Assembly: GCA_000004985.1 (NCBI GenBank) | Contig: GG738927.1 | Reading direction: 5' to 3' (one strand) | DNA length: 64,000 bases | Source of the DNA: Naegleria gruberi | Taxonomy: Eukaryota | Part shown: positions 200 through 57,335 of the stretch, piece by piece | Layout of the letters: every line of letters begins with the position of its first letter | Numbering within the stretch: position 1 is the stretch's first letter | Translations under genes and position numbers: made by a program | Notes under the pieces: generated by a model | Told to the model about the DNA's origin: nothing | The model's input: only the letters and a program-made list of their open reading frames with translations | Databases searched by the model: none

Positions 200-1177
200 T
201 CAGGTCTCATTTTGAAATGAATTTCCCAAATTGACTGTAACTCCTTTCTGTAATTTCTTAATTAGAATATCTGGTTTGGTGAAGAGTACTATTTTTCTTG
301 TGTCCATTAATTCTGGAATACTGTTCATAAATTTAAACATCCTTTTGGTATCTTGAATTCTCAAAGTTTGCGAATCATCTTCAGCTAGATATTGATCTAT
401 CTCTGAAAGTGAGATCACCAAAAAGATTGTTTCTGGCATGGAAGCCAAAGACTGCATCCATGTTCTTCTTTCAGTTCTAGCCCCTCCCACATCCCTGAAA
501 TAGCCATACCTGAATTCAAATTGTTTGCTTGAATTTGTACATTCATAACACCACGTCAAAGGAAGAAAGCTTTCGTTTGGATTTTCAATATTTTCCAAGA
601 ATTCTGGTAAATTTTCCAGCATTTGAAGGTTCAGTCTTGAATGTAAATTGATGCTATTTTTGTGTTCATTGCAATATTGTGAAATATTTAAACTTATTTC
701 ATTCCATCTAATTTCGTATAATTCTCGCATATTTGGAATTTTCCAAACATGGATTAATAATTCACAAAAATCAAAATTAGAAACTTGTGGAAAGGAATCG
801 AATAAATCCCAATCTTTTATCCTGATAATTTCCTCAATTTTATCCAAAGTCGATTCAAATCTCTCTAAAATCAACCCTTTCATTTGCTTTCTTTCACTTT
901 CTTCCAAAATACTCCACAATTTTCCCATCATTGAACAACAAGCATACTGCAAATCATGCTCAAACTCTATTTTACTCGAATAAAACCATTCCTTCCTCAA
1001 AATATGTTTTGCCAAATAATACAATGTTGATTTTCCACTATTGGCTGTTCCAAAAAGTGAGCAGCCCTCACCTATTTTTCTCCTAATGGGTTGTTGTTGA
1101 TTGGTTGCATCCGAAGGCAGTTGTTGCTGCTGATGATGATGATTATTTGGTATCGGATGTGATTGTTGTGCTCCCAT
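200..1177 (-). CDS. G-protein alpha subunit-like protein (divergent, switch II reads DVGGAR). The C-terminus is probably incomplete or continues in an exon beyond the window start
   Basis: N-terminal MGAQQS myristoylation motif; P-loop GEGCSLFGTANSGKST; DVGGAR in place of DVGGQR; TKPD in place of NKxD. ATG at 1175-1177 with A-rich upstream; the track start at 1204 lies 9 codons upstream. The ORF stops about 20 aa after TKPD, whereas Gα normally has about 80 aa more. Confidence 0.6.
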   Translation of the reverse strand: MGAQQSHPIPNNHHHQQQQLPSDATNQQQPIRRKIGEGCSLFGTANSGKSTLYYLAKHILRKEWFYSSKIEFEHDLQYACCSMMGKLWSILEESERKQMKGLILERFESTLDKIEEIIRIKDWDLFDSFPQVSNFDFCELLIHVWKIPNMRELYEIRWNEISLNISQYCNEHKNSINLHSRLNLQMLENLPEFLENIENPNESFLPLTWCYECTNSSKQFEFRYGYFRDVGGARTERRTWMQSLASMPETIFLVISLSEIDQYLAEDDSQTLRIQDTKRMFKFMNSIPELMDTRKIVLFTKPDILIKKLQKGVTVNLGNSFQNET

Positions 1178-1380
1178 TTTTTTCTCTAAGGAAAAGTTCA
1201 CCATCTTTTCTTTTCAATTTTTTGTAATTTTTGATATAGTTTACAATAAATAGCAGCTCATATATTAGCAATTATTGAGATCATTTTTGAACATTGTTGC
1301 ATACTGGACGGAAACATAGAACAAATCGTTTCTTTTCCAATTCCAGTTCAGAAAAAATTGTCACAACCATAACCACCACC

Positions 1381-18673: not shown

Positions 18674-20560
18674 CTAGTCCGAATCTTCCTCTTCAGTTTT
18701 TGGTTTCTGACTAAAAAAGGAGCCAATTTCACTTTGCTTCTTTTTAACTTTCAGCTTACAATTCACTTTTTCTTCCTTTCCTGTCTCCTTATCAACTATG
18801 AAAATATCATCTTCATCATCTATTTCATTCTCCTGGGGAAGAATTGATTTTTTCACAAGCTTAATATTACTCTGCTTTTTGGTTGGTTTTTTGGATGATG
18901 GCTCTGGAAATTCCTTTCCAGGAATAAATGGAGTCTGGAATAGATTGATGAGTTTCTTCACCTTCTTCTTACCAAAACCTGGCAAGTCATTCAGTTCATC
19001 AGATGTTGTCTGAATGACCTCTTTCAGTGATCCAAAGTGATTGAGCAATGTAATGTGATCTCTCTTGTTGAGTGTGTTTTTCAGAGTGGCAGCAAAGAGT
19101 TGATGCACTTCCTCAGTGTGCGAAAGTTTTTCTACCTCAACTGGTTTGGAGTTGCTATTGGAGCTACTTTCCCTACTCCATCTCCTATTTCCCTTTCGTT
19201 TACCTTGTCCTCCTGTTGATGTAACCAATGAATTGGTTGATGATTGAAGTGAGGCCAATGATTGATTAGGTCCTTGAATCAATGATGAACCCTTAGTCTC
19301 GCATGCTCTAATGGTTTCCAAATACAGTGCACATTCCTCATCTGAAAATCCACAAATCACAGTCCAATCGGCCCACATGGAAATTCTCGTTACTTCTATG
19401 AGTGCCTCATCGAGTGCAGTCTCTGAAACATAGGTTGGTGCCTTAAAGGTTCCACCATTCTCACCCTGAGAGTCCTGATGATTAGATAGATAAATTGATG
19501 AATCTCCACAGGCATCCACATGTACATCCACATTCACTAGAATGATTCGATTAGTAAACGTGCCTCTTTTACAAATTTCAGTCTTGTGAAAATTCTTAAT
19601 TCTCTCTAAAATATATTTCGGTTTGGTCATGTGAAATTTAAGACTGAGATAGAATGCAGTGGTTTGTCTTCCTAGAATATAATCAGTTAAGGTCCAATCT
19701 TTTGTAAAGTGTAATTTGAAAACCTTGTCCCGAATGTGTTTTACAATGGGATTCTTCTTTTGCACTTCATTTGCAACAATGGTTGTGGCAGTGGTGGGAA
19801 AAGGCACATACGAATTAGGTGGTACAGGATTTGATGTTACAGCAACTTGTGGACTAATGCTTTCAATCAATGGAGAAGCAGAAGCACTATTACTACTTCC
19901 AACAGAAGAAGGCGTCGATGGTGTACTACTATTAAATGGAGGAATAAATATTGGAGGAGTACTTTGATTCAAAGATGTCATAGACGACTTGACAGGAGTA
20001 ACAAAAGATGAAGATCCACTACCAACACTCGGAGAAGAATTACTCTTTTGAGAATTTTGAGAATTTTGAGATGTTTGTGAAATCCTTTGTGGAGGAATAA
20101 ACTTTTGTGGCACGAATGGCACGTTACTATTACTCGGAATGCTATTTGGTGGAGAAACCACAGTACCAGGTGTTCTATTGATAATTCTACTCGTGTAATT
20201 TGTTGTTGGTGTGTTGCTACTGCTTGCTACAGACGATGATTGTCTCGTTTGTTGTTGTTGATTGAAATTAATTAAATTATTATTATTATTGGATGATCCC
20301 AAGCCTGGAGCACTATTCGGAAGCCTCAAAGTAGCAGATGACGATGATGGTGATGATGATGATTTAAAATTCCTTTTCAATTCGGCAAGCCTTTGATTGG
20401 CATCTTGTCGATAACTTTCCAATTCTCGTTCTTCCTTTTCCTGTTCCTCATCAATATCAAAATCCATTACATTGACAATCAATCCGCCTCCTCCTCCACT
20501 ACTACCCTTCGAAGATGATGATGAATTGTTATTCCGAGAGGATGAATTGTTTTCTTGCAT
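18674..20560 (-). CDS. ercc1: DNA excision repair protein ERCC1 homologue with a long low-complexity N-terminal extension
   Basis: Central domain (KNPIVKHIRDKVFKLHF...YILGRQTTAFYLSLKFH...ILVNVDVHVD...ALYLETIRACE) aligns to the ERCC1 nuclease-like domain. C-terminal HhH2 (LLNHFGSLKEVIQTTSDELNDLPGFGKKKVKKLINLFQTPF) aligns to [41 protein letters not shown]. ATG after an A-run. Confidence 0.8.
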   Translation of the reverse strand: MQENNSSSRNNNSSSSSKGSSGGGGGLIVNVMDFDIDEEQEKEERELESYRQDANQRLAELKRNFKSSSSPSSSSATLRLPNSAPGLGSSNNNNNLINFNQQQQTRQSSSVASSSNTPTTNYTSRIINRTPGTVVSPPNSIPSNSNVPFVPQKFIPPQRISQTSQNSQNSQKSNSSPSVGSGSSSFVTPVKSSMTSLNQSTPPIFIPPFNSSTPSTPSSVGSSNSASASPLIESISPQVAVTSNPVPPNSYVPFPTTATTIVANEVQKKNPIVKHIRDKVFKLHFTKDWTLTDYILGRQTTAFYLSLKFHMTKPKYILERIKNFHKTEICKRGTFTNRIILVNVDVHVDACGDSSIYLSNHQDSQGENGGTFKAPTYVSETALDEALIEVTRISMWADWTVICGFSDEECALYLETIRACETKGSSLIQGPNQSLASLQSSTNSLVTSTGGQGKRKGNRRWSRESSSNSNSKPVEVEKLSHTEEVHQLFAATLKNTLNKRDHITLLNHFGSLKEVIQTTSDELNDLPGFGKKKVKKLINLFQTPFIPGKEFPEPSSKKPTKKQSNIKLVKKSILPQENEIDDEDDIFIVDKETGKEEKVNCKLKVKKKQSEIGSFFSQKPKTEEEDSD

Positions 20561-24566: not shown

Positions 24567-25114
24567 TTAAAAGTGGAAAACATAGGAAAAGTTTTGAGTA
24601 GTTTCTTCCTTACCGCCATAAGGATACCAACAAGTGTTACCCTTGGCCTTTCCTGGAATATCACCATGAGAAGTATGTGCTAGATATTCATGAATTTTCA
24701 AATATTTTAAAATGTGAAATAGTTGTTGTTATTTCACAAATGATCAAAACACTTACCAATAGCGCTCCACAAAGTACCAGCACCATCATTTTGATAACCA
24801 GTGGCAACTGATTGAGCTGGAGAGTCACCACTATGCTTGTAAGTAGTACCATTTACGACATAGGAGAAATTATTAGTGACTTGTTCTTGTCCACCATATG
24901 GGAACCAAGCAGTTCCACTGGCATTGGCCTTTCCTGGAATGTTACCCCATTGTGAGTGGGCTTTTTTATAATATTAAATATTTGATCCGATTAATATCAC
25001 GATATGATCAATTAAATCAAACCTACCAACAGCTACATAAACAACACCAGCACCATCATTTTGGAAACCAGTGATAGCATTATGAGGAACCATACCAGAA
25101 TTAGCAACTAACAT
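24567..25114 (-). CDS. Small three-exon internally repetitive protein (possibly lectin-like); absent from the ORF track
   Basis: Minus-strand ATG at 25112-25114. Exon 1 reads MLVANSGMVPHNAITGFQNDGAGVVYVAVG. Exon 2 reads AHSQWGNIPGKANASGTAWFPYGGQEQVTNNFSYVVNGTTYKHSGDSPAQSVATGYQNDGAGTLWSAIG. Exon 3 reads AHTSHGDIPGKAKGNTCWYPYGGKEETTQNFSYVFHF, followed by a stop. Two GTAGGT/GTAAGT..AG introns. The DNA itself is internally repeated (24611-24680 resembles 24891-24960). Confidence 0.45.
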
Positions 25115-25464: not shown

Positions 25465-28201
25465 TTACGAGATACCAAGTTTCATTTTACAAATTTTGGA
25501 GAGAACGAGAGCTGGTCGATCGAGTGGTGGTTCTAATTGAGGAGCATTGGCAGAATCTTTGAGAGATTCAGCTGTTTCCTTATTTGAGCTTTCGGCCATG
25601 AATTCTTCGAATAATTTCAAGGCATTTTCATAATGTTCTGAAAAGTATTCGAGGCAAGCATCTTGATACTTTTTCCATTTCAATAATTGATTCTTTTGTT
25701 GCAATTCATACATCCATTCTAAAGTTTGGAAAGTCAATATTAATTAACAAAAATCAGGAAAAAAACTTACCATCTTCCGAGACCTTATTACTCGATCCCA
25801 ATTCATAAATAGCCTCCTGACCAGCAATATCATTGGTAATTACGCTATCTTCAATACTATGAATATCAATTAAGGAATCAGTTTTTACAAAAATGGAATT
25901 TTGATAAAATTGATCAGCAGCTAACATTTTCATATCGACAAATCTGGTCTGATATGTCTTACTTGCAGTTTCGAATATCCTCTCTGGAATGACTACTTGT
26001 AAATCTAAACGATGCGCAGTTTCCAATAACTTTTCCAAGTTGACTTTAGCAGAACTAATTATTGAGAAATTCTTGCTTTCTGAAGTGCCCAAATTTCCAC
26101 AATATACTCTTTGGGTAGTAATTGCAAATCTGAACTGCAAATTTTCTGCCAATTGATGTGAAACCTTTTCACTCTTCTTACTGGAATGAGATGAAAAACT
26201 GTTCGAAACCAAATTCTTTCTCACAGCTAGCAATTTCTCCTGTAAAACCTTAACAGTTGAAAGCGCCTTTTCCACATGATTCTGACTATCTTTTGTTGTA
26301 TTAAACGAAAGAATAATAATATCATTCTCAAATGCTCCAATATTAAATCCACTGCTTCGACTCTGAACATTAATTTGCTCATAAACAAGAGATAGCAAGT
26401 TGACCACCGATTTACAATCCTCTGTCTTGTACCACTGATCCAGACCGTCTAGTAAAATCCCCAGAAACGTAACTTGTTTACCTTCCAAATAGAGAGAAAA
26501 CATGGAATTTTGACCTTTCTTTGAAGAGTTGGATTTTTGGGATTTGATCATATCAATCGAGCTGAACAAACCTGATTTGAAATTGCCACTTGTTAAAATT
26601 CTGGACCTGTTTATACTTTGATGGAGAGCAGAAGAAGCTGCCTGCTGTTGTTTCCCTGTTTCATCTGATTGTCCATCTAATTCTGCTAACAAATAACTTG
26701 GAATGAAAGCTCGATACATTTTGAGTTTTTTTAACATTGCTGCAAATTGAGTTTGAACATAATTGAGCTCTGAAAAGTAACTTTTCGATTCTTGATCTTG
26801 TAGAGCAGCATCTATATCCATGTTGGCCACTCTCTCAAACATTGTCATTAAAGTCTTGAATGGTTTTACAATACGGAATGAAAAGGCAACTCCAACCAAA
26901 ACACTAACTCCGATAATTACTATACTTCCACCCAAAGCAGCCAATAGAGCAATGATAATTGGAGAAATGTAATTCCATTGTGGAGTGGACATGGCAATGA
27001 CCCAATCCAAATTATATTTTGAACAAAATCTATATACGGTAATGTATTCATTAAGGGTAGAAATTTGGTAAAGAGTGTCACATTTCAATTCTTTCAAATT
27101 TGGATAGTTTCTGTACATTTCCTTAGCCAACTTGTTATGCTCCTCAGACAAAACAGTCAACCCAGTCCTTCTAATCACATCCACCTTATTTTCTGCCAAA
27201 TAAGCCAAAGAAATCGTTCGATTATTGACAGCTATCAAATAATCAGTTTTCGTTTCTATAATAAATGCTGTCGATCTTGCAATACTCGAAACGAGATCTT
27301 CCAAGAATTTGGAGATACGTTTTAACTCCATGCTAAATGCCAAATATTTGGAAATTTCAGTTGTGGAATTTGATTTAAGCCAAGATGTCATCATGGTGAC
27401 AAATGTTAAATCGGCACCGACATTATAGGAAGGAGTAAATAATGAATTGTCAGGATTTGACTTGGCAGTGGCATATAATCCAGATAATTCAAAACTTGGC
27501 ATGATCATATTAGGAGTTACTGATCTTTTGCAATAGTCGACTGTCAAACCTGCCAAACAATAATATACTTTCTGATAGGACGTGCCAATGTCAACAAATG
27601 CTGGAATAGTTCCCCAATTAATTATTGAAATAGAACCTGTCTGATTACCAATCAAAATGGCAGAGGGCAATGCATCATGTGTTTCAAACTCTGATTTGTA
27701 AAATTTGAACATTGACAACTCCAACTTGTCAGGATGATCCAAATCATCTTCGTGAATTTGACTTTTGGCAGTATTGACAACTAGCACAATTTCCTGAACT
27801 GTTTTTTCGATATAGGAACGAACAGATTCGAATTCATTCTTTCGAATAGTTGATGAGAGAGATGTGATTGCTGGACCGAAACTTGACAGCCAAGTTGCTG
27901 AGATAATTAAAGCTGACAGGACAACTAGGATTGTAATCATGGAAATGATAAAGAATTTGACAGATCTGAAACAGCTGACAGTTTTTTCATTCTTGACATT
28001 CTCAGCTAGGGAACCATCAGAATCTGCATTCGAAACTTCTTCGACATTTTGCTTTAATCCAGAAAATGATTTTTGGTTGACAGCTGTCACGACTGAATAA
28101 CGTAGAGCATATGTATTCTTGGAATTGGTTGAAAGGTTGAGTGGATTCTCTATGGATTGTCGAATACTGGCAGGAACGACTTTACTACTCGAATAAACCA
28201 T
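25465..28201 (-). CDS. Receptor-like membrane protein with TM1, an extracellular domain of about 370 aa, TM2, a HAMP-like linker, and a degenerate class-III cyclase-homology (CHD)-like domain; two exons
   Basis: Hydrophobic segments FFIISMITILVVLSALIISA and ISPIIIALLAALGGSIVIIGVSVLVGVAF. HAMP-like: RIVKPFKTLMTMFERV...SELNYVQTQFAAMLKKL. CHD-like: VTFLGILLDGLDQW...QFRFAITTQRVYCGNLG...SIISSAKVNLEKLLE, with metal/catalytic residues not conserved. Intron 25719-25770 is 52 nt (GTAAGT..TTAG) and joins the ...VSED exon to the EWMYELQQ... exon. Confidence 0.5.
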
Positions 28202-28628
28202 AATGCTGAGTTTCGTAGAGTTTCGTCTATTTTCGACTTTGAATGTTTTAAGGTTTAAAGTTGTTTTTTTTCGTTGTGAGTAAAAAGGTTTTGAAATCGT
28301 CAGAGTTTAATGAAGAATGAAATATCCTTAGAGATAGCCATGAAGCAAACACATTCCCGCGCAAAGTTATACGAAACTCATTGGTCAATCGACTTGGTTG
28401 CAAAAAATCAAAAAAGTATTTAGAACTCCATATCAGAAATGGTTCAATGCATATTCGTCAACTAAATTAAAATACAAACTCGGTTTTCGTGATTAGAGGA
28501 CTTTCGTGTTGAGGTTTCGTATAAATCAACCAACATCAAAATTTTAATAGCAATTTACATTTAGAAATGAGAAAATCGTAATTCGTTCATTTCAGAATAT
28601 GAAAATTTAATGTCATTTGAGGTTGAAA

Positions 28629-29246
28629 TCATTTATTCATCCTTTTTTGGAAATCTCTTTGCATAGGTGCTGATTTGCTTCGAATTCTTATATCTCTTTC
28701 ATTTGATTGATAATTTTCAAGTGTATCAACTGTGTCAATTGTCATTCGTCTCGAGTTTCGTTTAAAAGCCAAGTTTTCATTCGAAAGAATGGAACCTCTC
28801 CTTACCACTTTATCAGTTTCAAACAGTGCTTCATCATAACTGGTTAAATCTGGAGAAACTGAGAATACACTATCACAAACTGAACTAATTGTTTCTACCC
28901 AAGTAGACGAATCTTCTCCATCTTTGCTGTCTTTACTCCCAGATGATGGAAATGTATAACTGTTCAAGGGTGATGCACTTGTATGATTGTTCTCACTATG
29001 ATTTGATGAAATAATGTTGTATAAATCGGACGAAACTGGAGAGAAACTATTCCCACTACCAGAAAGACTAATGTCTTTTGATTTGGAGAACGAAGATCCC
29101 AAAATATCGAGCTGGACTGAAGAAGCTGAAATTGAGGTCAATGTATTCCAACAACCAAACGCAAAATTCGCAACCCACAAATAAACAAAACTAAAGGTTT
29201 CTAATATTAATTTTCTATACTCTTTCTCTTCAAATAGCAGAGACAT
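28629..29246 (-). CDS. Hypothetical Ser-rich protein with an N-terminal hydrophobic segment
   Basis: 205-aa ORF; no domain recognised. Confidence 0.3.
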   Translation of the reverse strand: MSLLFEEKEYRKLILETFSFVYLWVANFAFGCWNTLTSISASSVQLDILGSSFSKSKDISLSGSGNSFSPVSSDLYNIISSNHSENNHTSASPLNSYTFPSSGSKDSKDGEDSSTWVETISSVCDSVFSVSPDLTSYDEALFETDKVVRRGSILSNENLAFKRNSRRMTIDTVDTLENYQSNERDIRIRSKSAPMQRDFQKRMNK

Positions 29247-30008
29247 TTCTTTTTATTTGGTTTCTCCTCTTGGACCCAACAATTATCTGAGAGGTTTCAG
29301 TCTTTTCTTCATTCACATCATTGGAAAGCATATCTCTTTCCATTTTCTCCATTTTTATCTTTTAACTTTCCAATAAAAGTTGTGAATTTCATGAAGGCTA
29401 GTCTATTACTTCAATCTCTCTTGATATCAAGGTCTATTTATGGATCTACTAGTTTCGAATAAAGTGAGATAGTTTAATTGAATCAATAAAACAGTGTTTA
29501 TGTTATGAATTGGCCAATTCACCGTATTTTCTATTAATTTCTCCTTTTTTTTTTTATTATTAATTTTAAAAAATTGAAATTAATTTATTTATAAATTTTC
29601 TGAATTAAGGTTGCATTTGGAAATTCTTGGAATTTGATTACTTTGAATTTCTTGTAATATTAAACTATTCGAAATTCCAAATTAGGTCTATCCGTTAGTG
29701 TGTTTCTTTGTAACCACAAATGTTCCCTAAACGGAAAGAAAGGTAATCCAAAGACACTTCAGTTTGTGAATGATGTAAAGACACACAACAAAAAAATGTC
29801 TTCACAACCAAAACATGTTTCTTCTTCAGTTTCGAATAATAACAATGCAACAGTTGTTCGAAAGCAATTGTCTACCGAGTAGGTTTATAATTAATGGATT
29901 GTTACCTTATCTATTGTTCTAATTCGAATATCTCTTGTCCAAAAACATAGAAATATAAAAGATTCGGCAGGTTTCGAACAATTAGAAAAGAAAGCTTTCA
30001 TCAACGAT

Positions 30009-32363
30009 ATGAAAACAAGACAAATAACGCCGAGCCCTCTAACGATTTCATCATCTTCAAATCGTCCCGAAAAACATTCGAATAATAACATTAAAACTTG
30101 CTGCTTTGGAAGAAACTTTAGTTTACGAGTGAAAACTACTTTCGTATTAATTATAATGTTTCTCGGATTGATGGCACTTTGTCTGGGGATTTTACTAGCT
30201 GCCTTTTTCGTGGTTTTTCAAAATGTGGAATATCAACAAGCTAAAGAAGCAAGTAAACGAGTTTCTCGAGCATTATTGGACGATTTGAATTATTTACAGT
30301 CAAAAGTATTCGAATTTGGAGCATTTGATGATACAGTTTCCGTCTATGAAAATCTCACTCAGGAAAATATTGGAAATTACACTGAAATGTATTGGCACTG
30401 TGTTTATTTAAATAGTGTGAATGTGAATATGGCTTTTCTTTATTCGAAAGATGGAACTTTAATTACAAAAGTTCATTGCTTTAAGGGGCAAATGATAGAA
30501 CAAGTTCCTGATGAGTTTTCAAGTTTGGAAAAGAATTCGTATGGAAATTTCTTTTTACAAGATATTGAAAATGTTTGGAGTAGGAAATCTGGAATTTTAA
30601 TTCCAAAAAAGACAATTTTTGAGATGGCAACTTCTGATGAATCGAGGAATTTCCTTTCGAGTTATGAATCGAATGTGACGAATATTGTGTTGGTAGCTGC
30701 AATGCCAGTGCAGAGTACAAATTATGATTATTCGAGAGGTTTAGTCTTGTTTGCCAAGTATCAATTGGATGAACATGCTTTGGATATGGCTGAAAGAACT
30801 CAACTTTGCATGACCATGATGAATTTGAAAAACGAAACTGACCTCTATTCATTCAAGGAATCGATTGGATCGTTGGATACGAATGCATTTTCGAGTGGAA
30901 CTGATTGGAAAGTAACAAATATTACAACCTCATCCTATTTAACTGATTGGATTGATAACGAATCGTCGTTGGTTCAGTTTTTGGACTCGAGTGAAGAAAA
31001 TTCAGTGAAATTGAATAATCGTCAATGTTGGAAAGATAATATGAATGATGAAAGTTCTGTTTCCTTCAATGCTGGATCTCCTACCGATAGAATGGCTTCC
31101 TATCAAGCATTCTACACACTAGATGGAGAAAAGTCACTCATTATTCGATCCGATATTCCAAGAAAGACATTTCAAATAGGAATGGCATCATTTCTAGTTG
31201 TTTGGTCAGTCATGACTTTTATGATTGTTGTCATGTCAATTGCCATTGTCTGTTTTGTGGAAATGATAGTTCTGAGAAGAGTCATCTCACTATCAAGTAC
31301 TGTACAACGTGTGCACGACACTGTTAATTATGCAATTAGAGCTCCAAAACTAGGAAATGATGAACTAGGTCAATTATCCAAAGATCTTAACACCATGCTC
31401 GGAGAGATTGAACATGTGCAAAATCAACTCGAAAAGGACAATACAGTGATGCAGGATTTATTGGAGAAGACTGCTCTCGAAGAGGCCAAGAGTAGATGCG
31501 TCATGAATAGTATTGACGATTTCATTGTAACTGTTGACTGCTCAAATGGCATGCTTCTCAATATCAACCTCTCATTTGAGAGTAGAATCTTGAGAAAACA
31601 GAGAGCTTCCGTAAATTTTGAAGCACTCCCCTTCAATCAAGCTGTCTTTGCCTATTTTAAGGAAATTCCATCATTGGAATTGCTTTTACAAAAATTGGAA
31701 AATCTTGCCACGACTGGATCACATTGGGAAACTACCATTCTATCAGGATTTGGATTGAATATTCCAGTACATGTCACTGCTAAAAGAATTAAGGTAATTA
31801 TGGGTAAATTCACACGAGTGGATGCATACATGATTGTTGCCAGAAATTTGAGCGATCAAAACGAAATGAAACAAACCATCAAGAACAAACAAGATAAACT
31901 CGATGAAATGAAACAACATTCTGACTTTGACAGATACATGACAGATCCAATACTAAGACAACAATTTAAGGAATTTTGCACTAAGGAACGAGCTGAGGAA
32001 AATGTCATCTTTTTGGAACAAGTAATGGAATATAAGAAATTATCAAGAACTCACGAAAGAGCCAAGAAACAAAAGGAAATTATTGAAATGTTTCTTTCTG
32101 AAAATTCAGCAACACCAATCAATATTTCAAAACAAGTTTTTACAACAGAAGTGAAGAAAATTTTGGAAGGTTTTGGCCAATTACAACTTTTTGATAATTT
32201 AGAAACAATTATTAAGAGTATGCTCATTTTGGATAAGTTTAAGAGATTTATTTCACAATTTGAAACAAGTCAAATGACGACCATTGATACGGACAACATG
32301 TCTAGCTCAGGATCAATCGCATCAGATGCCAGTTATCAACACACTTTTACATCAACTGATTAA
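30009..32363 (+). CDS. Receptor-like membrane protein with TM1, an extracellular sensor domain of about 330 aa, TM2, a HAMP domain, and a C-terminal RGS (regulator of G-protein signalling) domain
   Basis: Hydrophobic segments TFVLIIMFLGLMALCLGILLAAFFVVF and IGMASFLVVWSVMTFMIVVMSIAIVCFV. HAMP: LRRVISLSSTVQRVHDTVNYAIRAPKLGNDELGQLSKDLNTMLGEI (DExGxL...FNxM pattern). RGS: ILRQQFKEFCTKERAEENVIFLEQVMEYKKL...KEIIEMFLSENSATPINIS. ATG start. Confidence 0.65.
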   Translation: MKTRQITPSPLTISSSSNRPEKHSNNNIKTCCFGRNFSLRVKTTFVLIIMFLGLMALCLGILLAAFFVVFQNVEYQQAKEASKRVSRALLDDLNYLQSKVFEFGAFDDTVSVYENLTQENIGNYTEMYWHCVYLNSVNVNMAFLYSKDGTLITKVHCFKGQMIEQVPDEFSSLEKNSYGNFFLQDIENVWSRKSGILIPKKTIFEMATSDESRNFLSSYESNVTNIVLVAAMPVQSTNYDYSRGLVLFAKYQLDEHALDMAERTQLCMTMMNLKNETDLYSFKESIGSLDTNAFSSGTDWKVTNITTSSYLTDWIDNESSLVQFLDSSEENSVKLNNRQCWKDNMNDESSVSFNAGSPTDRMASYQAFYTLDGEKSLIIRSDIPRKTFQIGMASFLVVWSVMTFMIVVMSIAIVCFVEMIVLRRVISLSSTVQRVHDTVNYAIRAPKLGNDELGQLSKDLNTMLGEIEHVQNQLEKDNTVMQDLLEKTALEEAKSRCVMNSIDDFIVTVDCSNGMLLNINLSFESRILRKQRASVNFEALPFNQAVFAYFKEIPSLELLLQKLENLATTGSHWETTILSGFGLNIPVHVTAKRIKVIMGKFTRVDAYMIVARNLSDQNEMKQTIKNKQDKLDEMKQHSDFDRYMTDPILRQQFKEFCTKERAEENVIFLEQVMEYKKLSRTHERAKKQKEIIEMFLSENSATPINISKQVFTTEVKKILEGFGQLQLFDNLETIIKSMLILDKFKRFISQFETSQMTTIDTDNMSSSGSIASDASYQHTFTSTD

Positions 32364-34086: not shown

Positions 34087-37000
34087 ATGTATTCAAACAA
34101 CAACAAGTGTCATTGTGGTTTAATTGCCAAGCAAGGAACGACCTCGAAGGGAGAAAATCAGGGTAGAAAGTACACCTCCTGTTCTAAAAGTATGACTGAT
34201 AAGAGTCGATGCAAATTCTTCAAGTGGTTAGATTCATCAGAACAAACAGCAACAACCAACATATCATCTTCTTCATCATCCTTCAAAAGCAATAGCAAAT
34301 TACAGCACAGTGAGCAGGCTTTTGATGATACTTTGAACAAGACGATACAATTGATGAATAGAGTGCTTCCTTCTTCCTTGTTATCATCAACAAGTGGTTC
34401 TTCTTCTTCATCATCAAATAACAAGTCTCCTTCCAACAACACTAATAGCCAGTGCTCATCTCTCACACTCTCACAATTGTGCTCCAGTATGGAAGACTTG
34501 AATATTGACAAAGATCTTTCAAAGCCTTCTTCTTCTCAAGCTATTGATAGAGACTTCATATTGAATGATAGTCTTTTTCCTTCTTCTTCTTCAGAAGCAA
34601 GCAAGAATAGTCTTCCTCTGATTGGAAACAATCAGCATAAAGGAGGAACATCATCTTCATCGTTACCAAATTCTCTCCTTGAAGAATGTATGCAAAAGGA
34701 ATTAAATAGCAAACAATTGGAGGCTGTCTGTGCTAGCGAACATGATTGTGTATGTGTTTATAGTGGACCGGGATCTGGTAAGACAAAGGTAAGTTGTTGT
34801 TATTATTGGATGGTAGAGGGAATTAATAATTAATTATTTGATGAATATTCATCTTGTGATGATGTGATGAATTTTTTTTTAATTTTTATTTAATTTTTTT
34901 AAAAAATTCATAACGGTCATGGATCCAAATTTTAGACCATCACCAACAGGATTGCCTACTTGTGTATTGTTAAAGGAATTGAACCAAGGAATGTATTTGC
35001 CATGACTTTTACTAACAAGGCTGCTCAGGAGATGAAAACAAGACTTGTTCACCTTGTGAAATTGTACGATTTTCAAAAGAGAATTAATGCAAAGGATTTC
35101 AGTCATATTGGAACGTTTCATGCAGTTTGTGCTAATATTTTGAGAAATGAGATGCATCATTTGACTCGTATTGTTGGATTGGATCAGAAATTTATGATAT
35201 TTGATTCGGAAGAGCAGCTGTCATAATTAGGAGCTTGTACAAGTCATCAACTAATCATTCCATTAGAAGNNNNNNNNNNNNNNNNNNNNNNNNNNNNNNN
35301 NNNNNNNNNNNNNNNNNNNCTTTTAAAAAATTCGTAACGGTCATTGTAAACTTTGGGTGGATCCAAATTTTAGACCATCACCTACAGGATTGCCTACTTG
35401 TGTATTGTTAAAGGAATTGAACCAAGGAATGTATTTGCCATGACTTTTACTAACAAGGCTGCTCAGGAGATGAAAACAAGACTTGTTCACCTTGTGAAAT
35501 TGTACGATTTTCAAATTAATGCAAAGGATTTCAAGACTTGTTCACCTTGTGAAATTGTACGATTTTCAAATTAATGCAAAGGATTTCAGTCATATTGGAA
35601 CGTTTCATGCAGTTTGTGCTAATATTTTGAGAAATGAGATGCATCATTTGACTCGTCTTGTTGGATTGGATCAGAAATTTATGATATTTGATTCGGAAGA
35701 GCAGCTGTCAATAATTAGGAGCTTGTACAAGTCATCAACTAATCATTTCATTAGAAGTTTACTTCCATTGAGTTTGTCTTTGGAGGATATGGAGAAGAAA
35801 CTCTCTCCAACTCTAGTTTTACAAACGATATCACGATGTAAGAATCAACAGGTTTCAGCTGATGAATATTCGAAAGCATTCCATCAAGAAATTGAGGAAA
35901 CGGTCATTGCTGAACTATTTGTAGAATATCAACAGTATTTATCGAAACACAATGGGGTGGATTTTGATGATTTATTGCTTCATGTTGTGTACTTGTTTGA
36001 AAAATTCCCTCTAGTGAGAGAAAAGTATGCCAATCAATGTGAAGTATTATTGGTCGATGAATTTCAAGATATCAACAAGTTACAATACAAGATTGCCATG
36101 CATTTGAACTCAAAGAGGAAGAACATCTTCTTGGTTGGTGATTCCGATCAAAACATTTACACTTTCAGATTCAGTGATAGCTCAATAATGCGGGAAGTTA
36201 TCAAAAAGTATGAGAAGGAGGGAAAGAGCATGAAAGTCATCATGATGAATGAAAACTATCGATCCACAAGAAGTATTGTCCAATTTTCAGACAAAATAAT
36301 AGCTAGCAATTCTAACAGATTAAGAACTATCAGCTCTACCACTTCAAACACCACGGGTTTACCAGTTTCGATAGTCAGTTGCTCTGATGAAGCCGAGTTC
36401 ATTACAAATGAAATTGTAAAACTCACAAACATGAATAACAACATTCAATATTGCGACTTTGCAATCCTTATCAGAGTCAACTCTGCTTCTCGAGTATTCG
36501 AAGACATTTTTGATAGGAAAAAGTTGCCTTACAGAATTTTGAATTCCACAAGATTTTACGACTCTATGGAAGTGAAAGATATTCTTTCCTATGCAAAAGC
36601 TATTGCAAATCCAGATAATGATCACTTCCTGTTGAGCTGTGTGAATGTTCCAAGAAGATGCATCACTGAGGAGACAAAGTCCAAGTTGATAAAGCTTGCA
36701 GCTCAGAATAAGATGTCTCTGAGGTCAATTATCAAGAATCATAACAAGGAAATTGCTGGACATCTAGGAGCCAATGAGTTACAAACACTCATTTCCACAA
36801 TAGATTTTATCGAAAAGTCTCAAATTAATCTTCATTCTCCTTCAACTATTATGCAAGATATTATTCGGGTGATTGATTATGAATCCTACTTGAAATTCAC
36901 ACAGAAGAATATGTTCGAAACAAGATGGGAGAATTTGAAAGAGTTAATTAACATGTGTCAAGAATTTGAGTCCAAATCAACCATTCCCTCAATTTCATCA

Positions 37001-38257
37001 TTTTTACAAAGCATTTCAATTTCCACAGAGATGGAACCAATTTCAAAAGATTCATCAAATTCCATTACAATTTCCACAATCCATGCAGCCAAAGGTTTAG
37101 AATTTGGAATTGTATTTGTGGCAGGAGTTGAGAAGGGAAATATTCCATACTACAAAGCTCAGGAAAAGAATGAAATAGAGGAAGAGAGAAGATTACTGTT
37201 CGTTGCCTGTACAAGGGCTCAGTCCTTACTCTGTTTAACCAATTCCAAAACAAGATTCAGACTTGGAAAGAGTTACAACACTCAGAGTTCTGAGTTTTTG
37301 AGCATAATTCTCTCTAATCAATTCACATTCTATTCTAATTCATCATTAGCGACTCTATTGAGTGATAATTCCATATCTCAATTAAGATATGAGACTATTA
37401 ATCATTTAGTAGCTTGCAGAGACAAGAAATCTAAACAAAATCTTTCTTCCTCCTCGGATATTCTGACAAAAGATCTGAAACGAGTTAAAAATATGGAAAG
37501 TTTCGAACCTACAACCGAATCAAGCAACGTTCCAGAATATTGGTTCAATAAGGAACGATTCAAGATTGTGGACGTAACAGATACTATGAAATTAACCATT
37601 CAAGACTTGATGGATAATTCATGTGAAAAGAAAACTCTTGGAAGTGGAAAGGATCAAACGTATTTCAAGAAACAATACACTCAATTGGAAGTTATCAAAG
37701 TGGAACGAGTTGAAAATCCAAATCTCTACGGATTATATCAAGCCAAACAATCTCAAATGAAATCTTTCAAGGATAATCCCCAACCCATCCCAGTCAAAAC
37801 TGTGGAAAAAGTTCCACCCAACTCAACAGCCAAAACCTGGATTCAAAGTGTAAAATTATGCCAACAAGTTAATGAAAAATTCTTTTGGCACGGCACTGAT
37901 TCACAAGTTGTGAGCATTATTTGTGAACATGGTTTAGATGCAAGAGTGAGCTCACTTTCTGGACTATTCGGTGCAGGAATTTATTTTGCAGAATATTGTT
38001 CCAAGAGTGATCAATACTGCTCGCCAACGAATGATCTTTTTCACATGTTTCTCTGTCGAGTCATGATTGGTAATCAAATTGAAACTCTTGAAAAGGGAAA
38101 ATCTCTCAATAATATTCGAAGACCAAGTGTCATTCCAAACACCAATGGACGAACATTTGATAGTATTCTAGGAAAACCAAACATGTACAAGGAATTTGTA
38201 GTTTACGATAGTTGCCAATGCTATCCAGAATTTCTAATTACTTATAAAAGGAAATAA
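34087..38257 (+). CDS. Fusion protein: N-terminal GRF-type zinc finger, UvrD/PcrA-like SF1 helicase, and a C-terminal PARP (ADP-ribosyltransferase, H-Y-E) catalytic domain. Two exons: 34087..34788 and 35374..38257
   Basis: GRF: [26 protein letters not shown]...CKFFKWL. Helicase motifs: GPGSGKT (I), [16 protein letters not shown] (Ia), [11 protein letters not shown] (II), NYRSTRSIV (IV), [16 protein letters not shown] (V), FVACTRAQ (VI). Exon junction: GKTK + TITYRIAYL...TFTNKAA aligns to UvrD GKTRVLTHRIAWL...TFTNKAA. PARP: [11 protein letters not shown]...[17 protein letters not shown]...MYKEFVVYD...YPEFLITY, compared with PARP1 LLWHGS...GKGIYFADMVSKSANYC...YNEYIVYD. The intron 34789..35373 (GTAAGT...TTTAG) contains a 50-N gap and a duplicated exon-2 copy. 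Confidence 0.75.
34880..35760. repeat. Near-identical duplicated segment (about 390 bp × 2) on either side of a 50-N gap. Probable haplotype/assembly duplication of helicase exon 2
   Basis: 34880-35269 and 35320-35760 match except for a few substitutions and a 1-nt indel. A local 45-bp tandem duplication lies at 35500-35590. Confidence 0.7.
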
Positions 38258-47120: not shown

Positions 47121-49231
47121 ATGTTTAACATTCATTGTGTAACGATCATGATAGTGGTGATGATATCACTGATTTGTGTTGTTGCTTCTGTTGTATCTGC
47201 ACAACAGAGAATCGATGTCAAGTATTCGATTCAAACTATTGTTGGTACTGGACAAACAAGTTTTAACAGGGATGGATTGACTGGATTGGCCACCACAATT
47301 AATAGCCCTATTGGTTTGTTTTATGAGGAAAGAAGTGGAGACTTGTACTTTGCAGATACTAGTAAGTTTAGTCCATGTTGTTTAGTTTACATGTCGTTCG
47401 AATCCTAAGTGAATCATAGAGTACGAGTATTGAGAAATAATTCAGGATTAATAGAAGCAGTAGCTGGAAACGGAACAGCTGGATACACTGGAGAAGGAAT
47501 TCTTGCTGTCAACTCGACACTTAACAGACCTTACGGTTTGTTTATTTCGAATAACAATGATATTTACATTGCTGGAAACTATGCCAATCGAATTCATCTA
47601 GTTTCTTCCAAGGACAACAAGCTGTACACATTCGCTGGCACAGGTGTTTCTGGATTCAATGGTGATGGCTTACTTGCCAATCAATCAAGATTTACACAAC
47701 CACTAGATATTAAACTGATCAACCAAGATAATCCAAACAACATGCAAATGATCATTGCTGATACATATGGCAGTAGAATTAGAGTGGTGAACATTTCAAC
47801 GATGATCACAAAAACACTTTCAACTCTTAGGTAAGTTTCTAACAAAGTTTCGTATGAACATGTTGTTTAGTTATCCTTTTGGAATAGAATCAGATAGTGA
47901 TTCTAATGAATTACTCATTGGATGTGCATCACCAAACAGTTATGTTATCCGTTATAATCTCAACACAAATATCATCACAACCGTGACAGGTGTCAATGGA
48001 AATTCTTCTCACACAGGTGATGGTGGACTAGCTCAATTCGCCACTTTTAACAATGTGAATGGTGTTGCTATTTCCAAACTAAACGGAGCCATTTATATTG
48101 CTGAACCGAATGGTAATACTATTCGAAAGATTTCTAAAAATGGAATAATTACAGCAATTGCTGGAAGTGGGTCATCAGGTTACAATGGAGATAATCAACA
48201 AGATGCCACCAAATCTAATTTAAATGCACCAAGAGTAATTGTTACTACCAAATCTGGAGAAATCTTTTTCACAGATACTAGTAATAATAGAATAAGAAAG
48301 TTGACAGCTGTTTGTCCAACTGGATATGTTATGGATGCGTTTAAAACTGTGTGTTTGGCAACATGTTATGGAATTGTTTATAATAATTCAAATGTTTGTG
48401 GTTCGAATGGAAAATGTCAGGCAGTTGACAGTTGTGTTTGTGATAGTGGATATTATGGACTAGATTGTTCGATTCCTGTTTGTTTGAAGTCTACAAATGG
48501 AGAATGTGTAAATGTCACTAGTACACCAGTTATTATTGAAAACATTGAAACAAGTCAATTGTCAAACAAATCAATTTCAATTGGTAGCTCAGAAAATAAC
48601 TCTACATCCAATTCGTCCATCTCAATTTCATTCCCTTCAGATTTTTCCAATTATGTTTCTAATCAAACAACTTCCTCATTAATTTCACTCTTAACAGCTG
48701 TCTCCAAGGGAGGAGAAAATGTGACAACTTCAAACACAACCACTTCTTCAATTGTTTCAGATATTATCACAATTTCACTTGCCTTAACAAACGGAGAAAA
48801 GATTCAAGTTTCTAAATTAGATAATCCAATTCAAATATTATTCCAAAAGCCATCAACATTTTATGGAAATTTGACATGCATGTATTTTGATGAATTGGTT
48901 AATGAATGGAAATTAGATGGAGTGGAAACTAAGATTGAAGAATGGACTGTAACTTGTCTGACTTCTCATTTGACATCATTTTCAGTAATTGACATTAATC
49001 TCAAGAAGGAAATTGTTAAGCCAAACAACCCTAAGAATATCTATTAAGATTATTACCGATAGCAACGGAACTACCATAACAACTAGAACTGAATCTAATC
49101 AACTCTCTGAAGAAGCTATTATCGCCATTTCAGTTTCAATTGCTGGAGCTGCAATTGTGTGTTGTGTTGTTGCAGTTATTGTAATGGTTGTAATTTGTAT
49201 GATTAGAAGAAAAGGATCAAACAATAAGTAA
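47121..49231 (+). CDS. Type-I membrane protein with a signal peptide, NHL (six-bladed propeller) repeats, an EGF-like module, a Ser/Thr-rich stalk, a GPS (GPCR-proteolysis-site) motif, a single TM and a short basic tail; four exons
   Basis: Signal-like MIVVMISLICVVASVVSA. NHL-like: YFADTS, GNTIRKISKNGIITAIAGSGSSGYNGD, IFFTDTSNNRIRKL. EGF: CQAVDSCVCDSGYYGLDCSIPVC. GPS: CMYFDELVNEWKLDGVETKIEEWTVTCLTSHLTSFSVI. TM: AIIAISVSIAGAAIVCCVVAVIVMVVICMI. Intron 47362-47409 is 48 nt. Intron 47831-47870 is 40 nt. Intron 48985-49048 is 64 nt. All have GTAAGT/GTAATT donors and frames that match. Confidence 0.6.
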
Positions 49232-52486: not shown

Positions 52487-53637
52487 TCAATCTGAACATG
52501 TGGTTAGTATGATGTCTGATAGTACTGATGGTTGCCTACAGAGTGTTTTGTAAAGATATGTTATTAATCTTGTGGTGAACAATGATTTGGAAATGTAAAC
52601 ATGTTCATTGGTTGACTGTGTGGATGATCTCAATAGTGATTCATAACATTCGAGGTCAGATAGCGTATTGATGAAATGATATTCAAATTTTTCGCCTTCT
52701 CTTATATATTCAAACACATTTTGATATCTGTCAATAATGGAATTCAATGCAATTCGTTCACTACTCTTTAAGTTTTCAATTTGTCTCAATTCCACTCTAT
52801 CACTATTGGATTCCAACTCTGAGGTGTTTGAATTAGCTAGTTTTGCAAGAAACAGATCTGCCATTGTAAAAATTACAACGACTCTCAAATCTTTTGTAAA
52901 TTTGTTTGTTAAAATCTCTTTAAATAACTCAATTGATTCGTGCATTTCATTAAAACCCTCATCAAAGCAGTCTTTGGTCCAAATCTTGCTGTTTGAGCCA
53001 ACTCTGAAAACCTCCTCCATCTATTCTCTGTGACTGAAGACAGCCGATTCTTTACATCAACCAAATTATATACTTCACCAGTTGGGTTGATCTTTAAATC
53101 TGAAATTCGCTCTCTTTTTTGGGACATATATTTCAGTAGATCAGTAGAAATTCTTCCTCTATCAAGTAATGAGAAAAACTTGTCATAATTTGCAAAATTC
53201 GTCCAGTTATTGTGACTATTACTAAATATTCTTTCCTTTGCAAATTCTCTAACTTGCACAGTACTCTTCCACAACTCCACAAATAATAAGTAATTATCCG
53301 AAAATCCTTTCAATATATTAAACCATGTTACGTTGGGAGTAGGAGAGCCGAGTACTTTTTTCACATTTTGAATTTCCAAACTATCATCCGAACTAATTCT
53401 AAACACTTCCTCTCTCACCTGATCATTCATTTCATTCAATAAACTTGCAAATGCATCAATGCAACGATTTGTTATTAGAATTTCCAACTTTTCCGATTTG
53501 TAAATATCTTGTTGTGTGTAACTTGCAAGTGAGCGTATGAAGACTGTTTTGCCACTTCCTTCAAATCCCAACAGAAGAATAGTAGGCAGGGGAGGTGATG
53601 TAGGTTTGTTAACAACTTTTGATTTCTTTCCTCCCAT
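52487..53637 (-). CDS. Divergent G-protein alpha-like protein (switch II reads RVGSNS instead of DVGGQR); two exons
   Basis: MGGKKSK myristoylation-like N-terminus. P-loop LLLGFEGSGKT. After a 35-nt intron (53021-53055, GTAAAG..ATAG), ...TGEVYNLVD joins MEEVFRVGSNSKIWTKDCFDEGFNEMHESIELFKEILTNKFTKDLRVVVIFTMADLF. This aligns to Gα TGIVE...[23 protein letters not shown]...NRMHESMKLF...NKKDLF. Confidence 0.55.
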
Positions 53638-55136: not shown

Positions 55137-55862
55137 ATGTCCACAACAACAACTACTCTAGGAACAATATCCACTATCAATTCGAATATAACCTTGATGC
55201 AAACATGTATTCGAATGGATCCGTCTGGTTTCACATATGTGCCTTGGATTTGGGACATCTTTGGTGAGTGTGTTCACGATATTCGTGAGCAATCTTCCTT
55301 CGCTATTGGTATGATTTCGTTAGGTTTCTGGATTATGGCCCTGCTGCCACAAGTCATTGCCAATTTCAAGAACAGAGATGCCAGCTCGCTGTCAACTGGT
55401 TATCTCATCCAAATTACATTAGGAGATGCAGCAAGTATGACTGCAGGTATCATGAGTGGTCAATTAATTACTCAGATTTTGTTGAGTGCCTATTTTGTGT
55501 TGATGGATGTAGTCATGATTGTTCAATATATAATTTTCGTGATAATTCCAAAGATTTATAGGAAAATTGTAAAGAAAGAGGAACGTGGGGATGATTTGAA
55601 AGGCAAGGAAATGAAGGAAGTTGTGAATAATGAGAAAGTGGTAAAGAAGGAAGAAAATACAAAGCATGAGATTGTGAAGAGCTCAGTGATGATTTCGTTA
55701 TTGTCTGTTTTGGTGATGGTTGCATTCTTTGCTTCAATTGTTGGCTTTTCACGAGCTAGTTCAGAAAGTTATGCGACTACACTTTCGAATAATAGAATTT
55801 CTAGGAAACTTTTACATGCTGTTCCAGAGGGAAAGGAATATCCACAGAAGAAGCTATCACAA
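55137..55862 (+). CDS. PQ-loop repeat (cystinosin/PQLC2-like) membrane transporter, 3'-partial (runs into a 1267-N gap)
   Basis: PQ-loop motif FWIMALLPQVIANFKNRDASSLSTGY; multiple TM helices. ATG at 55137. Confidence 0.5.
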
Positions 55863-57129: not shown

Positions 57130-57335
57130 ATATCATGCTCCTGTAAAAAGATTGTAACCATATTTCTGGAAAACTTATTGAGCGAGCTCATGACTAGTAA
57201 TTGCTTTGTTTGGAGGAATGACATGATATGACTCCAATTATCTTCATTCAACAAACGAAAGTGGAATAATGGTATAGATTTGTAAGGGTTGATCAATTTG
57301 GCTTTGGTTATATCTAAATCCCTCTCTTTGAACAT
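57130..57335 (-). CDS. N-terminal fragment of an F-box-like protein continuing into the N-gap
   Basis: MFKERDLDI...LNEDNWSHIMSFLQTKQLLVMSSLNKFSRNM resembles an F-box. The ORF runs into N's. Confidence 0.3.

Follow-up and report, generated by a model that had tools for sequence, protein, structure and literature searches.

Two probably independent receptor genes at a Naegleria gruberi locus: a predicted CHASE4-HAMP-PAS-RGS receptor and a dCache receptor with a degenerate class III cyclase fold

The sequence examined here is a 64-kb window of the Naegleria gruberi genome (~34% GC; positions are those of this whole stretch, + and - give the strand), in which two divergently oriented genes encode receptor-like proteins with two transmembrane (TM) helices: gene A (25465-28201, -), which ends in a degenerate class III cyclase-homology domain and a helical tail, and gene B (30009..32363, +), which ends in an RGS domain. 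An initial annotation, made from the letters of the sequence, had described the two as a pair of sensors with alternative outputs that lie close to Gα-like genes. Both open reading frames (ORFs) were found where it had placed them and in the divergent orientation it had given, and both products matched, at 100% identity, N. gruberi predicted proteins encoded on a 174-kb scaffold. Gene B is a complete coding sequence consisting of a single intronless ORF of 784 amino acids (aa). Gene A, when left unspliced, reads as an 815-aa ORF (28201-25754, -) followed by a 90-aa ORF (25737-25465, -); removal of a 52-nt GT..AG intron (25719..25770, -) joins ...SED in frame to EWMYEL... and gives a protein of 894 aa. 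This is encoded by exon 1 (25771..28201, -; aa 1-810 plus one base, as read from the ORF and the splice junction) and exon 2 (25465..25718, -; aa 811-894, which carries the conserved DEWMYEL motif ahead of a helical, TPR-like tail). The resulting junction ...SEDEWMYEL... matches ...ENDQEWMYEL... of the N. lovaniensis orthologue, which has the same C-terminal end. In the gene A model at NCBI (P0007, 1015 aa), the receptor is instead spliced onto a downstream gene with DM9 repeats (24570-25000, -). Since the N. lovaniensis and N. fowleri orthologues stop after the TPR-like tail, as does the 894-aa model, the NCBI model is probably a false fusion. The two receptor genes are divergent but not adjacent: between them lies NAEGRDRAFT_75679 (28629-29246, -), an exact match to an annotated N. 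gruberi gene, which encodes a Ser-rich protein of 205 aa without a domain and is part of neither receptor.

Domain organisation and distribution of gene B

The gene B product runs from a cytoplasmic N-terminus through TM1, a CHASE4 ectodomain, TM2, a HAMP domain, a predicted PAS domain and a connecting helix to a C-terminal RGS domain. The RGS domain (31926..32255, +; aa 640-749) was matched by Pfam RGS (PF00615; 57.4 bits, cut-off 23.9; E = 2.3e-15), in agreement with the initial annotation, and the same domain was matched in all three proteins of the gene B family described below. In the AlphaFold (AF2) model the region shows the all-helical RGS-box fold, with a predicted local distance difference test score (pLDDT) of 70-84. 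Its best sequence matches in the PDB were RGS10, 5, 12, 14 and 4, all of them active as GTPase-activating proteins (GAPs), and matches to GRKs had E > 0.1. In the alignment to RGS10, gene B carries A-E-E-N, N705, D742 and R746 at the Gα-contact positions, which we take to be the equivalents of S85-E86-E87-N88, N128, D163 and R167 of RGS4 in the RGS4-Gαi1 structure; the numbering of these contact residues reportedly comes from Tesmer and co-workers (1997). E664, N665, N705, D742 and R746 are invariant in the three gene B orthologues, and the equivalent of RGS4 Ser85 is Ala in the N. gruberi protein. Because the contact residues, including the key Asn, are intact and the best matches are canonical RGS proteins, the reading of the domain as a functional GAP is favoured, though not proven. 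With these residues in place, the earlier description of gene B as a ligand-regulated GAP appears plausible.

Exactly two strong hydrophobic segments, separated by ~327 residues, were found in the protein. TM1 (30138..30212, +; aa ~44-68) is a signal-anchor helix with a Kyte-Doolittle peak of 3.01 and four K/R in the 15 residues upstream, and TM2 (31194..31274, +; aa ~396-422) has a peak of 2.85. The K+R counts in the flanks (4 versus 2 for TM1, 3 versus 3 for TM2) are less decisive than those of gene A, and the orientation, with the N-terminus, HAMP and RGS inside and the ectodomain outside, is fixed by the domain homologies, CHASE4 domains being periplasmic and HAMP and RGS domains cytoplasmic. 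The ectodomain (30213..31193, +; aa ~69-395) is a CHASE4-like sensor with a poorly conserved insertion at aa ~270-355. Pfam CHASE4 (PF05228) gave 21.0 bits against a cut-off of 26.2 in gene B itself (E = 4e-4, aa 88-270) and reached E = 1.7e-9 in an orthologue. The HAMP domain (31269..31412, +; aa 421-468) begins at the end of TM2 and contains an invariant DE(L/I)G motif; here Pfam HAMP (PF00672) gave 23.0 bits against a cut-off of 25 in gene B itself (E = 1e-4), and in orthologues the match reached E = 4.2e-8. The profile of the three gene B proteins was aligned by hhalign (probability 98.9%, E = 2.8e-17) with an Anaerolineales CHASE4-HAMP-PAS-GAF-GGDEF-EAL protein that carries Pfam CHASE4; the alignment covers everything between TM1 and the C-terminal end of HAMP, so that the HAMP domains of the two are aligned as well. 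The ectodomain profile also matched the PDB entry 9p50_A on the aaWDe motif (E = 0.0017); this entry is a solved chain of 233 residues, annotated only as 'Diguanylate cyclase', and represents a periplasmic sensor domain.

Between HAMP and RGS a PAS-fold domain is predicted (31491..31847, +; aa ~495-613), in a region for which a profile search against the PDB and a Pfam search at E <= 10 gave nothing significant. A connecting helix (31848..31925, +; aa ~614-639; AF2 helix 614-645) leads from the last PAS strand into the RGS domain. The AF2 model was built from the three-sequence alignment and has a mean pLDDT of 45; its usable parts are aa 505-613 (pLDDT 60-80) and the RGS box, and the ectodomain lies below 35 and is unusable. 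The two-TM, bacterial-sensor-like topology and the HAMP domain proposed for gene B in the initial annotation both proved genuine, and to these the present analysis adds the identity of the sensor, CHASE4, and a predicted PAS domain. Judged by its homologies, the input of gene B is the input half of a common bacterial cyclic di-GMP (c-di-GMP) sensor, onto which a eukaryotic output appears to have been joined.

Relatives of gene B were sought among 5.8 billion clustered proteins, with the single sequence and with a profile. The architecture was found in three sequences only, from N. gruberi, from N. lovaniensis (P0002) and from an environmental source (P0003, an intronless ORF in JGI metagenome 3300002220). 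The profile query returned no further eukaryotic member from the 5.8 billion proteins, a scan of metagenome contigs gave no more relatives, and no N. fowleri orthologue turned up in a search that was restricted by its word index. After the three eukaryotic members, the next matches were bacterial CHASE4-HAMP-PAS-GGDEF-EAL sensors. Because the eukaryotic members number only three and the next relatives are bacterial, we infer that the sensor module may have been gained from bacteria in the Naegleria lineage and then fused to RGS, an origin that fits the observed pattern. Full-text literature searches, in which the survey of RGS architectures by Anantharaman et al. (2011) was not covered, yielded no paper describing a HAMP-RGS or CHASE4-RGS protein, and a literature search on CHASE4 in eukaryotes gave no description of gene B. 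In most lineages RGS domains are found fused to at least one TM helix, according to an account in which HAMP and CHASE4 are unmentioned (de Mendoza et al., PMC3971589).

Domain organisation and family of gene A

The gene A product consists of a dCache ectodomain between two TM helices, a HAMP-like linker, a class III cyclase fold and a TPR-like tail. It also contains exactly two strong hydrophobic segments, here with ~308 residues between them: TM1 (27890..27955, -; aa ~83-104; Kyte-Doolittle peak 2.79) and TM2 (26894..26965, -; aa ~413-436; peak 2.60). The distribution of K+R (4 upstream and 0 downstream of TM1, 0 before and 3 just after TM2) places the N-terminus and the segment after TM2 inside and the loop outside, in line with the two-TM sensor topology proposed earlier. 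That proposal had given both proteins extracellular domains of 330-370 aa; domains bracketed by the TM helices are present in both but are slightly smaller, with ~308 aa for gene A and ~327 aa for gene B.

The AF2 model of gene A, made from a 46-sequence alignment, has a mean pLDDT of 73.5, with values above 90 in the ectodomain and the cyclase fold. The ectodomain (26966..27889, -; aa ~105-412) is a dCache-type (double PDC) sensor, an identity that was resolved by fold search, not by sequence search. Foldseek matched the modelled sensor, TM and linker to a dCache model of Bacillus subtilis McpB/McpC (9a69_B; E = 1.8e-9 over 439 columns) and the ectodomain to the dCache ligand-binding domain of PctD (7prq_B; E = 9e-8). 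The ectodomain profile gave only a weak match in the PDB, to the dCache sensor of a diguanylate cyclase (7k5n; E = 0.19), and gene A itself had no direct Pfam dCache match. Among the 46 family members, six had dCache-type Pfam matches (MCP-like_PDC_1 in five, dCache_1 in one).

Downstream of TM2, a HAMP-like helix-connector-helix (aa ~437-497) is followed by a conserved F-I-P-x-x-L-L helix (aa ~498-510; the whole linker at 26672..26893, -), with AF2 helices at 408-459, 463-471, 477-497 and 502-509. P447 and E478 stand at positions that are hallmarks of HAMP, and the helix with F499, P501 and L505 resembles the cyclase transducer element. In the profile search against the PDB the HAMP domain of NarQ aligned in register with the linker at a sub-significant E of 0.16, hhalign of the linker against the gene B HAMP gave a probability of 0.35%, and Pfam HAMP was matched in none of the 46 family members. 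Of the HAMP-like linker that had been called for gene A, the helix-connector-helix is visible in the model and a significant sequence match is lacking. Between the linker and the cyclase fold lies a Ser/Gln-rich insertion (26507..26671, -; aa ~511-565) that is predicted to be disordered (pLDDT 31-39) and varies in length and sequence among orthologues. At the other end of the protein, the tail is modelled as helices at 812-822, 826-836, 840-865 and 878-889, TPR-type Pfam matches occur in a few family members, and D810 and W812 of the DEWMYEL motif are present in at least 90% of the 46. The dCache identity of the sensor and the TPR-like tail are additions to the initial annotation.

The cyclase-homology domain (25787..26506, -; aa ~566-805) was not recovered by direct searches with gene A, which gave no Pfam cyclase match at E <= 1 and no PDB match. 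A profile of the family (equivalent to aa 566-775), by contrast, matched Cya2 (2w01) with E = 3.8e-18, together with ~50 other class III cyclases, and Foldseek aligned the C-terminal part of the model to Cya2, CyaB, CyaC and Rv1625c with a probability of 1.0 and TM-scores of 0.74-0.78 (normalised to the target); the cyclase fold itself has a pLDDT of ~95. The earlier call of cyclase homology is upheld by this profile and by the fold match. Mapping of the catalytic positions through the Cya2 alignment revealed substitutions at five of the six positions of the catalytic hexad (class III, PF00211): metal Asp1 is replaced by L583, the Lys/Glu specificity residue by A623, the second specificity residue by S713, the transition-state Asn by V720 (with an Asn at +1) and the transition-state Arg by K724. 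Metal Asp2 is kept as D627, so that the catalytic and metal residues are lost, as had been suggested, except for this one. Across the 46 sampled family members the catalytic columns are variable, with Asp1 in one member and the canonical Asn in one, no alternative set is conserved, and the hexad is lost in all of them. Because only Asp2 is kept and the whole family is without the catalytic set, gene A is, as judged by residue identity, a homologue of the class III cyclases and not an enzyme-competent member.

To gauge the extent of the family, 1.84 billion representative proteins were searched exhaustively with a profile, for which database orthologues served as the query alignment. This returned 545 relatives at E <= 1e-3, of which 59 reached E <= 1e-30; many are full-length. 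Among the named members are paralogues from both N. gruberi and N. lovaniensis, together with an orthologue from N. fowleri. Gene A has conserved orthologues in N. lovaniensis as well as N. fowleri, and it is part of a large family of protist proteins with an expansion in Naegleria. Some members are labelled 'Guanylate cyclase domain-containing protein', others 'class 3 adenylate cyclase', and Guanylate_cyc (PF00211) was matched in 19 of the 46. The positions P447, E478, F499, P501, L505, G702, N703, G705, R753, D810 and W812 are invariant or nearly so in the 46 members; from this pattern the transmission path and the C-terminal interaction motif look to be under selection, and catalysis does not. 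Taken together, the sequences suggest a family of modular pseudo-cyclase receptors that extends beyond Naegleria. A search of one literature library found no publication on Naegleria pseudo-cyclases of this kind. In paralogues, this degenerate cyclase core was also observed with other inputs, namely NIT (nitrate/nitrite-sensing) ectodomains in three of the 46 members and long N-terminal ankyrin arrays in nine (P0056, P0058, P0061, P0073 and others). Members from outside Naegleria came from JGI metagenomes and from a EukProt transcriptome labelled 'Hpha'.

Genomic neighbourhood of the two receptor genes

The two atypical Gα-like genes that had been reported in the window were both found and both matched Pfam G-alpha. 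Gα-like gene 1 (200..1204, -; E = 2.1e-27), 29 kb from gene B, has DVGGAR in switch II, with Ala in place of the Gln, and TKPD as its NKxD motif. Gα-like gene 2 (52487..53637, -), 20 kb from gene B, consists of two overlapping ORFs (E = 1e-5 and 2.4e-10, each below the cut-off) and is strongly degenerate, with DVKN for DVGGQ and TMAD for NKxD; its split corresponds to an intron or a frameshift. On the strength of these motifs, both may be GTPase-dead or nucleotide-independent pseudo-switches. RGS proteins speed hydrolysis by positioning the catalytic switch II Gln of Gα, and the neighbouring Gα-like proteins would be poor GAP substrates because this Gln is absent. The earlier argument from the co-occurrence of gene B with Gα-like genes is weak at such distances and with such substitutions.

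The genome of a close relative of N. gruberi is ~30 Mb in size. This relative has about 108 RGS genes (PMC9283941), and for that reason an RGS gene in the window is not a rare event; the chance of finding one in 64 kb is ~0.2 by a rough estimate. In N. lovaniensis the orthologues are found on two contigs, that of gene B on PYSW02000038 and that of gene A on PYSW02000021, and no RGS or Gα gene lies closer than 10 kb to either locus. In both species gene A is followed, at a distance of a few kb downstream, by a Rad10/ERCC1 gene (18674-20560, -, in N. gruberi; L003 16939-18777 in N. lovaniensis), which forms with it a small conserved microsynteny block that does not include gene B. A relationship of genes A and B as paralogues was rejected, as BLASTP detected no similarity between them.

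It could be argued from the divergent orientation within ~1.8 kb, from the common two-TM sensor topology and from the presence of two Gα-like genes in the 64-kb window that genes A and B form a functional pair, in which a shared divergent promoter would drive both, one input would have two outputs and both would act with the nearby Gα-like genes. We consider this highly improbable. The two proteins have no sequence similarity and use different sensor families (dCache in gene A, CHASE4 in gene B), NAEGRDRAFT_75679 stands between the genes, and their N. lovaniensis orthologues are on different contigs although gene A has kept its Rad10 neighbour there. Moreover, gene A has an orthologue in N. 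fowleri, where one of gene B was not found, and the Gα-like genes, at distances of 20-29 kb, both lack the catalytic Gln. The same observations speak against the pair with alternative outputs of the initial annotation. Genes A and B are most probably two independent receptor genes that lie near each other by chance, and the clustering of both with the Gα-like genes is in all likelihood coincidental.

Several other features of the window were noted. A 912-aa ORF (35519-38257, +) combines a UvrD/REP superfamily-1 helicase (E = 1e-41 for the N-terminal and 5e-57 for the C-terminal part) with a C-terminal PARP catalytic domain (E = 2.5e-25), and such a fusion of a helicase and an ADP-ribosyltransferase is unusual. 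An ORF of 397 aa (47854-49047, +) encodes teneurin-type NHL and EGF modules and, near its end, a GPS (G-protein-coupled receptor (GPCR) proteolysis site) motif. EGF and GPS ectodomains occur on seven-transmembrane (7TM) RGS proteins of N. fowleri (PMC9283941). No 7TM or RGS part follows the N. gruberi ORF, the next gene being on the opposite strand ~200 nt downstream. The gene at 49246-52413 (-) encodes a 1055-aa protein made up nearly entirely of ~20 tandem DUF4116 repeats (Pfam E = 8e-187). A low-GC stretch at 56-58 kb (14.5% GC, ~55900-57130) was rejected as a biological feature, since it is an assembly gap of ~1229 N, and the long overlapping ORFs at 55137-57335 in several frames are artefacts of this run of N.

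Interpretation and comparison with known systems

The best overall explanation, which we hold with moderate confidence, is that the locus encodes two independent receptors, of which gene B is a chimeric receptor-GAP and gene A a ligand-regulated pseudo-cyclase. In the mechanism proposed for gene B, the protein would be a homodimer, like HAMP sensors, and binding of an extracellular ligand to CHASE4 would alter the geometry of the dimer. The change would be relayed via TM2, HAMP and its helix into PAS and on through the helix at aa 614-645, where it would alter how far the RGS domains, tethered to the membrane, are exposed or how they are oriented, and in this way set the rate at which a self-activating Naegleria Gα returns to its GDP form, that is, the lifetime of Gα-GTP. 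In the one characterised CHASE4 sensor, PA2072, the CHASE4 domain senses extracellular ATP and Fe3+, and dimerisation allosterically controls the cytoplasmic enzyme (PMC12625894). The Gα subunits of N. fowleri exchange nucleotide fast and self-activate, and 7TM-RGS proteins deactivate them, as in plants (Bosch et al., PMC9283941); this species has 28 7TM-RGS proteins and 79 further RGS proteins (PMC9283941). With a self-activating Gα, a receptor would act as a GAP and GTP hydrolysis would be the regulated step. The initial annotation had argued that a sensor-HAMP-RGS fusion would bypass the need for a 7TM receptor. The two-TM device is borne out, and it departs less from known systems than this argument implied, the self-activating Gα subunits of Naegleria being known to be governed by receptor-RGS fusions of the 7TM-RGS type. 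That gene B is a working cross-kingdom hybrid, in which a CHASE4-HAMP-PAS module of bacterial origin directly gates a eukaryotic RGS GAP domain independently of any 7TM protein, is a serious but tentative proposition. On this reading, a self-activating heterotrimeric Gα would come under the control of a small molecule or an ion, perhaps of a nucleotide as in the case of PA2072.

Gene A is most likely a ligand-regulated pseudo-cyclase, a reading that is favoured because the transmission path and the C-terminal motif are conserved and the catalytic residues are not. A signal would rearrange the dimer of cyclase folds, and the rearrangement would be read out by protein-protein interaction and not by synthesis of cyclic nucleotides, either via the conserved DEWMYEL/TPR-like tail or by association with active cyclase paralogues.

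Alternative functions have to be weighed for both proteins. The RGS domain of gene B could be of the Gα-effector or scaffold type, as in GRKs, RGS-RhoGEFs, axin and sorting nexins, and would then recruit Gα-GTP, be regulated by it, or signal independently of G proteins; this is rather unlikely, as the best matches are the canonical, GAP-active RGS10, 5, 12, 14 and 4 with GRKs at E > 0.1, and the equivalents of RGS4 E87, N88, N128, D163 and R167 do not vary among the three orthologues. As to gene A, class III cyclase domains are obligate dimers with composite active sites, and a protein that keeps the fold and the dimer-forming core without the catalytic set could serve as a ligand-regulated negative partner that heterodimerises with active cyclase paralogues and silences them. 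A large repertoire of cyclases would be at hand for such pairing (PMC9283941). The strongly conserved DEWMYEL/TPR-like tail points instead to a dedicated downstream partner, and silencing is considered unlikely. Lower still do we rate the chance that gene A is an active, non-canonical nucleotide cyclase, or is active as a heterodimer with another cyclase-homology protein. Its class III fold is intact and confidently modelled, D627 is kept, an Asn stands one position after the canonical one, and ~80 cyclase-domain proteins in Naegleria are possible partners (PMC9283941). Against this, five of the six positions are substituted (L583, A623, S713, V720 and K724), and the occurrence of Asp1 and of the Asn in one of 46 family members each implies that no alternative catalytic set is under selection. 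Nor could gene A contribute either half of a composite heterodimeric site, be it the one with the two Asp or the one with Lys/Asp/Asn/Arg.

Some observations weigh against the explanation by a receptor-GAP and a ligand-regulated pseudo-cyclase. The CHASE4 and HAMP scores of N. gruberi gene B itself are below the Pfam gathering cut-offs, the unusable model of its ectodomain leaves CHASE4 without support at the level of the fold, and the PAS call comes from a medium-confidence, three-sequence model with no significant sequence match beside it. The ligand, dimerisation, GAP activity and Gα partner of gene B are all arrived at by inference. In gene A no significant sequence match supports the HAMP, which can be called HAMP-like only, a predicted disordered insert of ~55 residues before the cyclase fold would be unusual for rigid mechanical coupling, and the presumed inactivity is deduced from the identity of the residues.

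In plants and in Naegleria, receptor-RGS fusions control G-protein signalling at the step of GTP hydrolysis, and gene B extends this established receptor-GAP concept rather than introducing a new principle. How ligands affect the GAP activity of 7TM-RGS proteins is poorly understood, and a CHASE4-HAMP-PAS receptor-GAP would be a tractable alternative: the mechanics of these three domains are among the best studied in bacteria, HAMP/PAS chimeras are routine, and ligand screening on the isolated CHASE4 domain is feasible, as with PA2072. Were the hybrid reading of gene B true, HAMP-type dimeric transmembrane signalling could drive the deactivation of G proteins, and a second, mechanistically distinct class of receptor-GAP would exist. 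Gene B is in addition a clear case of a bacterial input combined with a purely eukaryotic output and bears on the evolution of signalling networks by domain shuffling after gene transfer. Through gene A, a family of sensor-linked pseudo-cyclases with at least 545 members comes into view, and some of the 80-100 'cyclases' counted in Naegleria genomes may make no cyclic nucleotides.

Receptor-type class III cyclases with an extracellular sensor and a HAMP domain include the mycobacterial Rv3645/Rv1319c type and bacterial cyclases linked to Cache or CHASE sensors. Gene A shares with them the two-TM sensor, the helical linker, the F-I-P-x-x-L-L helix and the class III fold, and differs in the lost hexad, a HAMP that is undetectable by sequence, the disordered insert of ~55 aa and the added TPR-like tail. 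The best structural matches for its ectodomain, TM and linker are dCache chemoreceptors (B. subtilis McpB/McpC and Pseudomonas aeruginosa PctD), from which it is set apart by an output that is a pseudo-cyclase instead of a methyl-accepting domain and by its eukaryotic host. Gene B has the succession TM1, CHASE4, TM2 and HAMP, followed by a PAS domain that in gene B is a prediction, in common with P. aeruginosa PA2072 and other CHASE4-(HAMP)-PAS-GGDEF-EAL sensors (PMC12625894, PMC10904736), and its nearest bacterial match is a protein from an Anaerolineales metagenome-assembled genome (P0004; identity ~22%). Unlike these sensors, it has RGS as its output and not c-di-GMP enzymes, and its ectodomain contains an extra, variable insertion of ~85 aa. 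With the 7TM-RGS proteins, represented by Arabidopsis AtRGS1 and the 28 N. fowleri proteins (PMC9283941), gene B shares a C-terminal cytoplasmic RGS domain on a membrane receptor, a canonical RGS box with the key Asn kept, and a host in which Gα is self-activating and GTP hydrolysis is the regulated step. It has two TM helices and not the seven that define that family, relies on a CHASE4-HAMP-PAS module, presumably as a homodimer, in place of a GPCR-like bundle, and belongs to a tiny family of which three sequences were found. Gene B is accordingly best read as a two-TM, bacterial-style functional counterpart of the 7TM-RGS proteins that stands outside their family.

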